A DNA stretch of 57,575 nt from positions 62,001 through 119,575 of the IMG/VR virus record IMGVR_UViG_3300046665_000305; one strand, 5' to 3'. The position numbers were made by a program, and so were the translations under genes. Shown here one piece after another: positions 24,854-32,442 of the stretch. The stretch's first letter is position 1, and each line of letters opens with the position of its first letter. Origin of the DNA: an uncultured virus (IMG/VR IMGVR_UViG_3300046665_000305) (lineage: Duplodnaviria; Heunggongvirae; Uroviricota; Caudoviricetes). Under the pieces are notes generated by a model. That model had not been told where the DNA came from. It ran no database searches and worked only from the letters and a program-made list of their open reading frames with translations.

Positions 24854-26465
24854 TCCTGAAAATCAATTTGCAGCTGTTCAACAATATTTAGAACACTACG
24901 AGAACGAATACAAGGAAAAGCTTAGAAGTTCAGCATTTGATAGTTATTCATGCTTCGCTGAATATCTCAACATGGATGAGCCACCCGCGCCTCACCACCA
25001 TTTCATGTGTGAGAAACTTCAGCTTGTAGAATGTGGCGACATTCCTCGCCTAGCGTTAAGCGTCCCGGCTGGCGGCGGTAAGAGCGAATACTCTTCCCGT
25101 CGCTTTGCTGTATGGTGCATGGGTCGAAGAAAGACTAAATGGCTTCAGGCCAGCTATGCCGCCGCGTTCGCTACAAACGAACTTGGCAAGAAAACCAAAG
25201 CCTATGTCAATGGTGACGCATTCAAAGACGTGTTCGGAGATGTAGCACTTCAAGCCGACATGCGAGCCGGTGACAGATGGGCGCTGACGAACAAATCTGA
25301 ATATGTCGCTAAAGGCGTTGGCGCTGGTATCATGGGTATCAGAGCGAACATTGGCTGCATCGATGACTTGTATGCAAGCTACTTAGAAGCTCAGAATCCT
25401 AAAGTCAGAGATGACGCCTATTCATGGTTCCTATCTGACTTTCAGACCCGACTCTTGCCCCGCGCTCCTATCGTTCTGGTCAACACTCGATATAATTCTG
25501 ATGACATGATCGGCAGACTTGAGACTGAAGGTAAAAAAGGAAATATTATCCCTTATGAAATCATCAACCTCAAAGCTCTATCTGAGTTAGGTGATGAAGA
25601 CGATCCTATGGGCCGCACAGAGCCCGACATGCCTCTTTGGGACTTTTACCATCAGGATTACCTAAATAAGAGAGCAACGCTCACAGGAGCCATGTGGGGC
25701 TCAATGATGCAGGGCGTACCCGTAGATGCTGAAGGCGTTCTCTTAAAGTCATCTTGGTTCAATCGCTATAAAGGCGATGTAAGGAAAAACCCTGAGATTA
25801 AAATCCGCAGAATTGTTATGTCTGTCGATACGGCGCAGAAAGCGCAAGAGCGTCACGACTACACAGTTTGTACAGTTTGGTTAGAGACTGAATTTGGCTT
25901 GCATTATCTCTTAGATTGCGTTAGAGATAAAGTTGAATTTCCAGAAATGTGCAAACTCATTGATGAGACGGCGCAGCGCTGGAACGTGTCATGCATTCTG
26001 ATCGAAGATAAAGGCTCTGGCACTCAGTATATCCAAACACGCCAAGGCAAAACATCAGTTCCGATCATTGCTATCAGCACAAATAATAATTCTAAAGAAT
26101 TTAGATTTGATGCCGTAGCCCCTACCATCGAAGCCGGTTTGGTTTACCTACCGGAATCCGCCAATTGGCTAGCCGAATACGAGCGCGAGCTAATGGCATT
26201 CCCGTATGGCAAGAATGACGATATGGTCGATAGCACCAGCCAATATTTAGAATGGGCCAGAGGAAGACAGAGAAAATTAGGAACTAAAAAACTTCACGGT
26301 TCCGGCTCTACACCCTCTAGCGATGCTAAAAGAACTATGGTAGAGAAAGCAATCCAAGAAGAAATGGAACGCAAACGTATAGAAAGGGAAAAACGTGAGC
26401 AAGCCGCAGCAGCAGCAGAAAGCCCCGCCTCGACGCAACCCGATGGCGAGAGAATTGGAACTTAA
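24762..26465 (+). CDS. terL: terminase large subunit
   Basis: Walker A PAGGGKS, Walker B CIDD, TRY motif, nuclease SVDTA...DYT...IEDK...DDMVDS; start could be 24699. Confidence 0.95.
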   Translation: MEEALQDHLRLKSPISTHLSSAIVSLTKTANPENQFAAVQQYLEHYENEYKEKLRSSAFDSYSCFAEYLNMDEPPAPHHHFMCEKLQLVECGDIPRLALSVPAGGGKSEYSSRRFAVWCMGRRKTKWLQASYAAAFATNELGKKTKAYVNGDAFKDVFGDVALQADMRAGDRWALTNKSEYVAKGVGAGIMGIRANIGCIDDLYASYLEAQNPKVRDDAYSWFLSDFQTRLLPRAPIVLVNTRYNSDDMIGRLETEGKKGNIIPYEIINLKALSELGDEDDPMGRTEPDMPLWDFYHQDYLNKRATLTGAMWGSMMQGVPVDAEGVLLKSSWFNRYKGDVRKNPEIKIRRIVMSVDTAQKAQERHDYTVCTVWLETEFGLHYLLDCVRDKVEFPEMCKLIDETAQRWNVSCILIEDKGSGTQYIQTRQGKTSVPIIAISTNNNSKEFRFDAVAPTIEAGLVYLPESANWLAEYERELMAFPYGKNDDMVDSTSQYLEWARGRQRKLGTKKLHGSGSTPSSDAKRTMVEKAIQEEMERKRIEREKREQAAAAAESPASTQPDGERIGT

Positions 26466-29967: not shown

Positions 29968-30477
29968 ATGGATAAAGTATACACTGTTTATAAAATAACT
30001 AATAACATCAATAACAAATACTACATTGGAGTGCATCTAACTAATAATCCTTACGATGGATATTATGGCTCTGGCGTAGCCATTAAACAAGCAATAAAAG
30101 CACACGGTAAACATAATTTTAGAAAAGAAATACTATTCATAACTTCTTCTAAAGAAGAAGCTTATTTAAAAGAAATTGAATTAACTAATGATTACGATAA
30201 AAATTTCACCTACAATATGCGCTTAGGCGGTGTAGGTGGATTCACTTCAGAAGCAGCAAAAGCTGGCGCTGAGAAACGATTAGAGTTACACGGCCCGCTT
30301 AAAGGACGTAGCCCTGCATTGTTTTTGACCAAAGAAGAGCTTAGAGAAAATGGCAGGAAGGGTGGTTTAAAATTAAAAGGTAAACCAAAGTCGCCTGCTC
30401 ATGTTGAGGCTATGAAAGAATCTTATAAAAGGCGAAAACAAGTTTTGGTAGAGGATGCTGGAATCGAACCAACGTAG
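29968..30477 (+). CDS. GIY-YIG homing endonuclease (Seg-like)
   Basis: VYKITNNINNKYYIGVH, YYGSG, FRKEIL and YNMRLGG motifs; AT-rich; opposite orientation to neighbours. Confidence 0.9.
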   Translation: MDKVYTVYKITNNINNKYYIGVHLTNNPYDGYYGSGVAIKQAIKAHGKHNFRKEILFITSSKEEAYLKEIELTNDYDKNFTYNMRLGGVGGFTSEAAKAGAEKRLELHGPLKGRSPALFLTKEELRENGRKGGLKLKGKPKSPAHVEAMKESYKRRKQVLVEDAGIEPT

Positions 30478-30520
30478 AAACGGTTATGAGCCGCAGGCAC
30501 TACCATTGTGCTAATCCTCC
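30446..30520 (-). tRNA. tRNA with CAT anticodon (Met or Ile2)
   Basis: cloverleaf GGAGGAT...CT-CAT-AA...GGTTCGATTCC...ATCCTCT-A-CCA. Confidence 0.9.
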
Positions 30521-30530
30521 TTCTTAAAAA

Positions 30531-30620
30531 TGGCCTACACGGAGGGACTCGAACCCCCATTGATGTTATCGCCTCCAATTACGGTTACTAAGGGGTAGAA
30601 ACCCTGACCGGTACGTGTAG
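30531..30620 (-). ncRNA. atypical tRNA-like RNA (Arg-TCT-like loop, no D-arm, long extra region)
   Basis: acceptor stem CTACACG/CGTGTAG-G-CCA, T-arm GGGGG-TTCGAGT-CCCTC, hairpin AGGG-TTTCTAC-CCCT. Confidence 0.75.
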
Positions 30621-30625
30621 ATAGT

Positions 30626-31621
30626 TTAACTAATTAAAGCCGTGCCGAAATTAGCGCCACGCTTAACGAAAGTGAATGTACCTGTTACAGTACCATTAAT
30701 AACGTGAGGCATCATGTCGCACAAATCTTTCATAAAGACAACAAGTTTTTCACCTGTGGATCGCTTAAAATAGAAGTAAGCAGCACTGCGACCCCGCTCC
30801 ATAGAATCAAAAACTATCGTGTCTTCAAAGGCGTGATTATCACGCATCTCACATTCGACACGCCCATTGCCGCTCCAATAACTCTCAGGATAATGCAGCT
30901 GATTCCCGTTACGATCAAACGGAATTTTATAATTTCCAACTTTTTTAGCCATTGACAAACTCTTTCAGTTTATCAATGAAATCTTCAGGGAAGGTTTCTT
31001 CCACAATATTACCACCCATGGGAAGACAAAGATCACCATCCCATTCGGCTTTACGCCTAACCGTCACACGATAACCGCAGTCAACTTTAGTAATATTAAA
31101 GTAAGGCGGATAGCTTCCCGTATTGGGAGTATAACCAAACTGATCTTTCATATTAATCCGATCTAAATCTTTTTCCGTGATGAATACAATTCTTAGGAAC
31201 GAAGGTATCGCGATACACGCATAGATGCTCGCCTATCCCGTAACGAACCAGCGTTTCTTTCGCGGTCCAATCCTCTGGCACGTTCCTGAAAGAGCCAATA
31301 AATCTTGGCCCACTTTCGTAACGTTCATCATATATAAGAATGGTCTCGCCCATGATGCTAGTCTCCCTCCACGATCTTGAAATCCGGCTCTGGACCCCAC
31401 TTGAGGTATCCCGGCGTGTTCAAGGATTCGAATAGCATCTTTCCATCTCTTACGTCAACCAATTTCCAGCACGCGCCGTGCTCATTGATCCTGTTCTTGC
31501 CCTTGCGTGTAATCCCCTCAAGGATGAAGTTTTTAGACATGTGAGCCTCCATCCGTTTCTCGGCTTCTACACCGATTTGTAGTATTTTATCCCAATTTTC
31601 TTGAAGTAGTTTGATAATCAT
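30626..31621 (-). other. four small hypothetical genes inside the tRNA cluster (30626-30952, 30945-31151, 31153-31353, 31358-~31540)
   Basis: co-directional packed ORFs. Confidence 0.65.
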
Positions 31622-31862: not shown

Positions 31863-31939
31863 TGGTAGGCGCTGAGGGACTTGAACCCTCGACCCTCTGC
31901 TTAAAAGGCAGATGCTCTAACCAACTGAGCTAAGCGCCC
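31863..31939 (-). tRNA. tRNA-Lys(TTT)
   Basis: GGGCGCTTAGCTCAGTTGGTTAGAGC...CT-TTT-AA...GGTTCAAGTCC...CCA. Confidence 0.95.
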
Positions 31940-31949
31940 GAAGAAAAAA

Positions 31950-32074
31950 GGCTGGATCGAAGCAATGTTATCTCCCGTCGAAACGGCTTGTTACATTTAC
32001 TTTATCCATTCCGCTCGATCAAGGCTTTGCGCCTCTGTTCCAGCGGTTCAGTACCTGTCAATTCAGGTTGAGCC
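31950..32074 (-). ncRNA. candidate structured ncRNA
   Basis: GGCT/AGCC closing stem, three internal stem-loops including CCGT-TTCG-ACGG. Confidence 0.5.
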
Positions 32075-32080
32075 AAACTA

Positions 32081-32220
32081 TTTAGGAAGGGAACTGAGGG
32101 GAATCGAACCAAGTATCCTTATGTTTCTCTGCCAGTCGCAACCGCCTTCGAAACTACTTCTTTCCTCATTAGACCTTGAAGGAACAAGGTCATCAGCATA
32201 ACCAGCATTCCCCACCTAAA
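32081..32220 (-). ncRNA. candidate structured ncRNA with T-loop-like GGTTCGATTCC
   Basis: TTTAGG..GGGAA / TTCCC..CCTAAA terminal stem, GACCTTG/CAAGGTC hairpin. Confidence 0.55.
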
Positions 32221-32239
32221 CAGTTTCATTCAATTATAA

Positions 32240-32355: not shown

Positions 32356-32442
32356 TGGTACGGGCTACCGGACTCCAACCGGTACGACACAAAGGTCAAC
32401 AGATTTTAAGTCTGTCGTGGCTAGCAATTACACCAAGCCCGC
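32356..32442 (-). tRNA. tRNA-Leu(TAA)
   Basis: cloverleaf with ACAGA-CT-TAA-AA-TCTGT, long variable arm and CCA. Confidence 0.9.

Follow-up and report, generated by a model that had tools for sequence, protein, structure and literature searches.

The element at nt 30531–30620 of the window, a stretch of 57,575 nt from an uncultured virus, raises the question of whether an RNA that has the ends of a tRNA and an unusual interior is a tRNA, or something that imitates one. On the minus strand, the 7-bp Watson-Crick acceptor stem (30620–30614 with 30541–30535), the G discriminator (30534), the encoded CCA (30533–30531) and the T-arm (30558–30542; a 5-bp stem including one G.U pair, and the loop TTCGAGT) are as described in the first-pass annotation. 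The same is true of the interior, in which the acceptor strand is followed by 8 nt, an AGGG/CCCT hairpin with the loop TTTCTAC, and a 32-nt stretch leading into the T-arm. The plus strand gave no tRNA fold, and that reading was dropped. From the comparisons described below it appears likely, with a probability of roughly 0.8, that this is a functional tRNA-Arg(UCU) whose core is rewired; it would decode AGA and be charged by the host ArgRS.

The first-pass annotation called the element D-armless. An ordinary D-arm is indeed missing, as no D hairpin precedes the anticodon arm on its 5' side, but the term is too strong, since a D-stem of three covarying pairs and the GG-bearing nucleotides of a D-loop are both present in another order, with the D-stem closing around the anticodon arm. 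The D-loop (A, A, two variable nucleotides, G, G, A) lies directly 3' of this helix, and the order of canonical positions is therefore 1–8, 21–45, 9–20, 46–76, which amounts to a canonical tRNA with two blocks exactly exchanged. It follows from the swap that the secondary structure is a three-way junction, consisting of the acceptor stem, a long arm in which the 3-bp D-stem is stacked on the anticodon arm, and the T-arm; the D-loop nucleotides are situated between the last two (Table 1).

Table 1. Parts of the element and neighbouring genes, in window coordinates
Feature	Position (nt)	Strand	Basis or remark
Probable rewired tRNA-Arg(UCU) gene, 90 nt with encoded CCA	30531..30620	-	Structure, covariation, model R1, swap-back test
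Acceptor stem, 5' strand (canonical 1-7)	30614..30620	-	Pairs with 30535-30541; two-sided changes in 7/7 pairs
U8, then directly an invariant A (A21 in the likely assignment)	30612..30613	-	Invariant, 78/78
D-stem strand, about canonical 22-25, 5' of anticodon arm	30608..30611	-	Three pairs with 30582-30584, 78/78
Anticodon arm (27-43)	30590..30606	-	4 covarying pairs, C.U top pair here, 7-nt loop
Linker, presumed canonical 44, 45 ... 9	30585..30589	-	Place in alignment A2
D-stem strand, about canonical 10-13, 3' of anticodon arm	30581..30584	-	Parser, covariation, RNAalifold
Relocated D-loop: A14, A15, two variable nt, G18, G19, A20	30574..30580	-	A14, G18, G19 invariant
Extra segment, about 11 nt, possible 3-bp mini-hairpin	30562..30573	-	After A20
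A47, U48	30559..30560	-	A47 in 106/106; A15 with U48 in 104/106
T-arm	30542..30558	-	Two-sided changes in 4/5 pairs
Acceptor stem 3' strand, G73, CCA	30531..30541	-	Window sequence
Canonical tRNA-Met(CAU), 10 nt downstream	30446..30520	-	ARAGORN, Rfam
110-aa hypothetical gene directly upstream; synteny anchor	30626..30958	-	Without Pfam family
GIY-YIG (SegE-like) endonuclease gene	29968..30477	+	Pfam PF19835, 27.7 bits
tRNA-Leu(UAA)	32356-32442	-	Upstream, same cluster
tRNA-Lys(UUU)	31863-31939	-	Upstream, same cluster

Copies were gathered from viral, metagenome and genome collections by pattern scans and by BLAST, at first at least 79 and later at least 107 distinct ones, of which 78 were aligned for covariation, 79 were used for pairing counts, 106 for identity elements and 107 for the swap-back test. 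Covariation was observed in all five helices of the 78 aligned homologs, with 97.3% of cells paired (none of 500 shuffles scored as high) and two-sided changes in 19 of the 20 pairs, and the stems are kept in this way in unrelated phages, as the first-pass annotation had suggested checking. Element positions 11–13 pair with 37–39 in 78/78 sequences, with two-sided changes in 1, 27 and 24 sequences, respectively. RNAalifold predicted the same 19 pairs with no structure supplied. Because the first parser had asked for the D-stem, the search was repeated without this requirement, and three Watson-Crick pairs were found in 79 of 79 copies, compared to a maximum of 48 in 10,000 permutations. The layout as a whole occurs more often than by chance, as the parser found no match in three shuffles of 821,330 bases. 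A substitute D-stem between CCGGT and ATTGG, proposed earlier, did not hold up: its five pairs are present in 79, 78, 55, 54 and 11 of 79 homologs, the first two lying between nearly invariant columns, and the covarying partner of CGG (30610–30608) is CCG (30584–30582).

The anticodon arm has a 7-nt loop with U33 and, in the window copy, four pairs below a mismatched top pair. Covariation fixes the register of the loop at UCU (30597–30599), which upholds the earlier Arg(UCU) assignment, and an amber (CUA) reading of the loop was dropped for this reason. The sequence TTTCTAC is also that of the anticodon loop in the canonical chromosomal tRNA-Arg(UCU) of two actinobacterial genomes (G009 and G018). 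The 5-bp T-stem and its TTCRA loop are as in canonical tRNA. Position 13.22 is U.U or U.C in 106/106 copies. The bases U8, A14, A15 with U48, G18 and G19 are invariant or nearly so and show no covariation among themselves; on this basis the RNA would fold to the usual L shape, with U8.A14 and A15.U48 formed and G18/G19 reaching to the T-loop. Folding of the window sequence alone is unremarkable (z-score -0.55), and the model structure (-19.6) lies 7 kcal/mol above the predicted minimum (-26.6). The extra segment, roughly 11 nt long, is found in a 90-nt subfamily (10/79, including the window copy) and is absent from the common 79-nt form; its mini-hairpin is a candidate only, for which covariation was not shown. 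Two copies (L187 and L249) have longer hairpins at this site.

Since the inner segments are swapped and do not form a textbook cloverleaf, such genes are missed by standard gene finders. Use of these programs as a check was also suggested by the first-pass annotation. ARAGORN, as well as Rfam at its gathering score, missed the window element, and ARAGORN called none of 107 native copies; once the two blocks were swapped back, with no base added or removed, it called 107/107 with the anticodon unchanged (control: 111 of 2140 random block exchanges were called). The best match of the window element in the tRNA clan is to tRNA-Sec (17.9 bits, E 9.1, cut-off 47), while short rewired forms sometimes pass RF00005 weakly (29.5–44.1 bits). 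A covariance model of the family, R1, separates the two kinds: the window copy scores 74.4 bits and members 57.8–87, while canonical tRNAs from 31 sources reach at most 36.4.

Genes of this predicted type are common in phages, and their carriers include unrelated phages and hosts as well as a bacterial chromosome. BLAST matched the element at 90–95% identity to copies in OspM_OC and Phosso, cultured phages that are unrelated and in which the acceptor stems are altered yet remain paired, and a shorter form was found in Atu_ph04. By sequence or by model, the cultured carriers also include SOVA965, LPML1, heid, Felix O1, 121Q, 7t3, UPEC06, DC31, Wildcat and Mildred21. Their copies are either unannotated or labelled Leu(UAA), TERM, Phe(GAA) or OTHER, and those of Felix O1 (25951–26032), 121Q and Mildred21 are likewise unannotated or misannotated. 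The copy in mycobacteriophage Wildcat (L447, 4001–4076), also unannotated, has a CCU anticodon and C33. The exact window-type pattern had no match in 185,579 genomes; a scan of the same genomes that left the anticodon free gave 14 matches, of which 12 were real and two (L243, L248) did not parse. One query of plasmids returned no record covering 80% of the window element. BLAST matches in Vibrio phage Direpillow8 and in BcepSauron proved to be canonical and were dropped. A tRNA-Ile(UAU) of another Vibrio phage record (L238, 5974–6066; annotated as Arg in one record) has an ordinary D-arm, and its long variable arm carries a D-loop-like loop; it is not a member, although it could be a look-alike of an intermediate.

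If the swap preserves function, the features by which an arginine tRNA is recognised should still be in place. According to PMC9976931, the bacterial Arg determinants are A20, C35, U/G36 and A/G/U73, and U20 is an Ile determinant. The A that follows G18 and G19 would be the three-dimensional equivalent of A20, the principal determinant for ArgRS. It was found in 104/104 copies with an Arg anticodon (UCU 95, ACG 4, CCU 4, UCG 1), and U20 in both copies with an Ile anticodon. The latter two have UAU and GAU anticodons (L187, 2065–2161, minus strand; L211, 1331–1409, plus strand). The UCU anticodon and G73 of the window copy supply the remainder of the set (C35, U/G36, A/G/U73), and the discriminator across 106 copies is G in 63, A in 33, U in 9 and C in 1. 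Some of the viral search patterns fixed A20 and they favoured UCU, which is in part why UCU predominates among the viral matches; in the genome scan, which fixed neither anticodon nor A20, all 12 real matches had an Arg anticodon together with A20. A viral scan for anticodons without C35, confined to the 79-nt geometry, gave 16 matches, none of them real. The predicted arginine identity elements are retained, complete, and track the anticodon.

Gene order also bears on function. Six loci with the upstream 110-aa gene were compared, three from close and three from distant relatives. The close relatives (L504, L505, L507) share 84–87% DNA identity, two of them being identical over the stretch compared, and have the order Leu, Lys, 110-aa gene, canonical tRNA-Arg(UCU), Met; the three distant loci have no Arg tRNA in this slot. 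In the window, the slot is filled by the rewired gene, within a 1-kb block that is unlike the close relatives and also holds a different tRNA-Met and the GIY-YIG gene. Four DNA sequencing runs contained relatives, and their contigs leave the window sequence at 30625. A similar exchange is seen in Actinomycetota: two metagenome-assembled genomes (G001, G002) have the rewired gene among chromosomal genes, namely those for a GDSL hydrolase, an RNase T-family exonuclease and tRNA-His, and the same locus in G009, G018 and G030 carries a canonical Arg(UCU). Another close relative, G019, has no Arg tRNA in the stretch of the locus examined. Among 61 genomes of the group, 49 have a canonical copy by a strict pattern, and the rewired form is confined to G001 and G002. 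In these two metagenome assemblies a canonical Arg(UCU) was not found, the rewired gene being the only Arg(UCU) gene found. G002 has 43 tRNAs called by ARAGORN, of which those for Arg are ACG, CCG and CCU only, and uses AGA 32 times in the 60,696 codons sampled. Judged by gene order, the rewired gene stands in for canonical tRNA-Arg(UCU).

Carrier records were also searched for a canonical copy, using 25–26 nt spacings and then adding 27 nt. It stands beside the rewired form in 3 of 50 records (carriers only were counted, mostly fragments) and in one of the nine that are near-complete; both forms are present together in G079, G096, G106 and also L245. No canonical Arg(UCU) was found in nine of ten cultured carriers, one of the searches covering the 27 nt spacing only. 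The tenth, Phosso, has a canonical-like Arg(UCU) remnant (L284, about 1465–1545) that ARAGORN does not call. Phosso also has a CUA-anticodon tRNA annotated as Pyl (L002, 1791–1866). Mildred21 combines rewired UCU, UCG and ACG genes with a canonical CCU gene only, with no overlap between the sets within the 14 kb examined. For Felix O1, the genome paper (PMC3185647) states that a tRNA for AGA was expected and not found.

In the proposed pathway, the element and the tRNA genes around it would be transcribed together. Host RNase P would trim the RNA, which would adopt the usual L shape although three of its backbone links, and no more, are altered. It would be charged by the host ArgRS through A20, C35, U36 and G73, and would then read AGA codons, which make up a quarter of the Arg codons (147/598) in 31 long ORFs of the window phage. 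The first-pass annotation had favoured a mimic, and a tRNA-shaped decoy that binds ArgRS, or enzymes that cleave or repair tRNA, and is not used on the ribosome must be weighed against this. A decoy aimed at Arg-specific proteins would likewise keep A20 and the anticodon, some genomes do carry both forms, and phage tRNAs are known to counter tRNA-cleaving defences, for which action as decoy or as supplement has been suggested (PMC11555353; PMC13096335). A decoy alone would not be expected to replace the canonical gene in place, as seen in the phage relatives and at the actinobacterial locus, nor to be the sole Arg(UCU) gene detected in the bacterial genomes G001 and G002, the latter of which is shown to use AGA. 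Switching of the anticodon among all four Arg types seen, the non-overlapping gene sets of Mildred21, the scarcity of canonical copies among carriers, the core nucleotides that are complete after the swap and the Arg identity set that follows the anticodon all point the same way, and the decoy explanation is considered unlikely.

The remaining alternatives concern what becomes of the transcript. The RNA could be a working tRNA in which the 3' 'D-loop' is undocked, in which case it would resemble the D-armless tRNAs of mitochondria, with an extended anticodon arm. The constant pyrimidine mismatch at 13.22 and a D-stem of only three pairs fit such a structure, and Y10-C11 could pair instead with the invariant GG, but A14, A15, G18, G19, A20 and U48 are at canonical spacing, and the tracking of the amino acid by A20 or U20 is hard to explain unless the loop lies in the pocket facing the synthetase, so this is very improbable. 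Slightly more remote is the idea that cutting and re-ligation turn the transcript into a canonical cloverleaf, in the manner of permuted and split tRNA genes. All 107 swapped-back sequences make good canonical tRNAs, and the D-stem covariation is compatible with either order; nevertheless, a single molecule would have to undergo three precise cuts and three ligations, neither a splice-site motif nor a linked ligase was seen, and the carriers are unrelated phages and hosts, plus a chromosome. Decay to a pseudogene, suggested by the failure of ARAGORN and Rfam and by the ordinary single-sequence folding, can be discounted for practical purposes. It is refuted by the covariation, with more than 100 distinct copies intact, and in rejecting it the first-pass annotation was correct.

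Why a tRNA-Arg should be rewired is a separate matter. Our favoured guess, a tentative one, is that the rewired form evades host enzymes by which tRNA-Arg is recognised or cut; the main alternative is that a viable variant spread neutrally through gene exchange. Countering tRNA-cleaving defences is a possible reason for the rewiring. The fullest form of the proposal is that widespread non-cloverleaf tRNAs work on bacterial ribosomes, that on a bacterial chromosome AGA decoding has come to depend on such a tRNA alone, and that phages selected them because the rerouted backbone keeps ArgRS recognition and escapes defences that cut or modify tRNA-Arg; taken together, this must be regarded as doubtful, if conceivable.

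To our knowledge, outside mitochondria the order acceptor stem, D-arm, anticodon arm, T-arm is taken to be universal. Compared to canonical tRNA-Arg(UCU) (RF00005), the rewired form has the same 7-bp acceptor stem, T-arm (5 bp and 7 nt), anticodon arm, CCA, genomic slot and nucleotides U8, A14, R15, G18, G19, A20 and Y48; it differs in the exchange of 9–20 and 21–45, the lack of a D hairpin and a three-way rather than four-way junction, and the window copy lies below the Rfam cut-off. Metazoan mitochondrial tRNA-Ser(AGY) likewise runs from acceptor stem to anticodon arm with no intervening D hairpin, but it has lost the D nucleotides and has a degenerate T-loop, while the rewired tRNA keeps and moves its D-stem and D-loop and has a canonical T-loop. 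A gene order unlike that of canonical tRNA is also known from the permuted and split tRNA genes found in red algae and in archaea. In those, circularly permuted genes or separate pieces yield a normal cloverleaf on maturation, whereas the swap seen here is internal and leaves the acceptor stem intact. The tRNA-like domain of tmRNA and the YrlA Y RNAs achieve a tRNA-like shape by other connectivity; these, and the tRNA-like structures of plant viruses, either belong to larger RNAs or are mimics that do not decode, unlike the rewired form, which is tRNA-sized and has a 7-nt anticodon loop. Assignment to tmRNA or Y RNA was rejected, there being no Rfam match and no G3.U70, tag frame, Ro-binding stem or pseudoknot; pair 3-70 is A-U in the window copy and varies freely across homologs. 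For the plant-virus structures, other connectivity is mentioned in PMC9976931. Irregular tRNAs of bacteria and of phage clusters, likewise missed by standard searches, are dealt with by Mukai et al. (PMC5389517), namely allo-tRNAs, the (8/4) tRNA-Ser/His of alphaproteobacterial phages and E-loop tRNAs, and the (9/3) allo-tRNAs include AGA/AGG anticodons. As described there, these change the lengths of acceptor and T-stem (8/4, 9/3) within a cloverleaf, while the rewired form keeps 7/5 and reorders the arms. The allo-tRNA or tRNA-Sec type (8/4, 9/3 or 8/5, with a long variable arm) was rejected, given 7/5 in the alignment and the poor tRNA-Sec score. Rfam has no family for the rewired tRNA, and no description of a block-swapped layout was found in the literature searched, mostly outside subscription papers. 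We regard the rewired tRNA-Arg as a new structural variant of tRNA.

If the main reading is correct, synthetase, EF-Tu and ribosome would read a three-dimensional arrangement and not the path of the backbone. Rewired genes would fill gaps in phage tRNA sets, such as the 'missing' AGA tRNA of Felix O1, and would explain the wrong annotations as Leu, Phe, TERM or OTHER. The near restriction to arginine may point to an unknown pressure on tRNA-Arg during phage infection, and a block-swapped tRNA could serve as a new scaffold for tRNA engineering.

The virus record from which the window was taken has 119,575 bases and is 65% complete; its terminase is nearest (about 40–43%) to those of large siphophages, mostly of alphaproteobacteria. 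Scans for promoters and terminators gave chance-level results. The GIY-YIG gene has no match in the three close relatives, and no close homolog of it was found beside other rewired copies in the loci examined, for which reason arrival by homing is only a guess. HNH or other endonuclease genes also abut the rewired element in SOVA965, heid and Mildred21. The tRNA-Met of the window has a mismatch at the top of its anticodon stem, and the tRNA-Met genes of the relatives differ from it and among themselves. The tRNA-Leu(UAA) is without the D-loop GG. Between tRNA-Leu and tRNA-Lys there is a stretch of 156 nt (32074–32229) with 99% identity in the relatives, compared to 76–87% in its flanks; it includes a T-arm-like piece, has no Rfam match, and is possibly another structured RNA. 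A binned contig (L239) has a dense tRNA array in which ARAGORN calls with UUA (stop) and four-base anticodons occur beside a rewired Arg gene. In OspM_OC, about five hairpin-like repeats with an ACAGCAA core lie downstream of the homolog (L001, 6400–7110), and are covered by tiny annotated ORFs.
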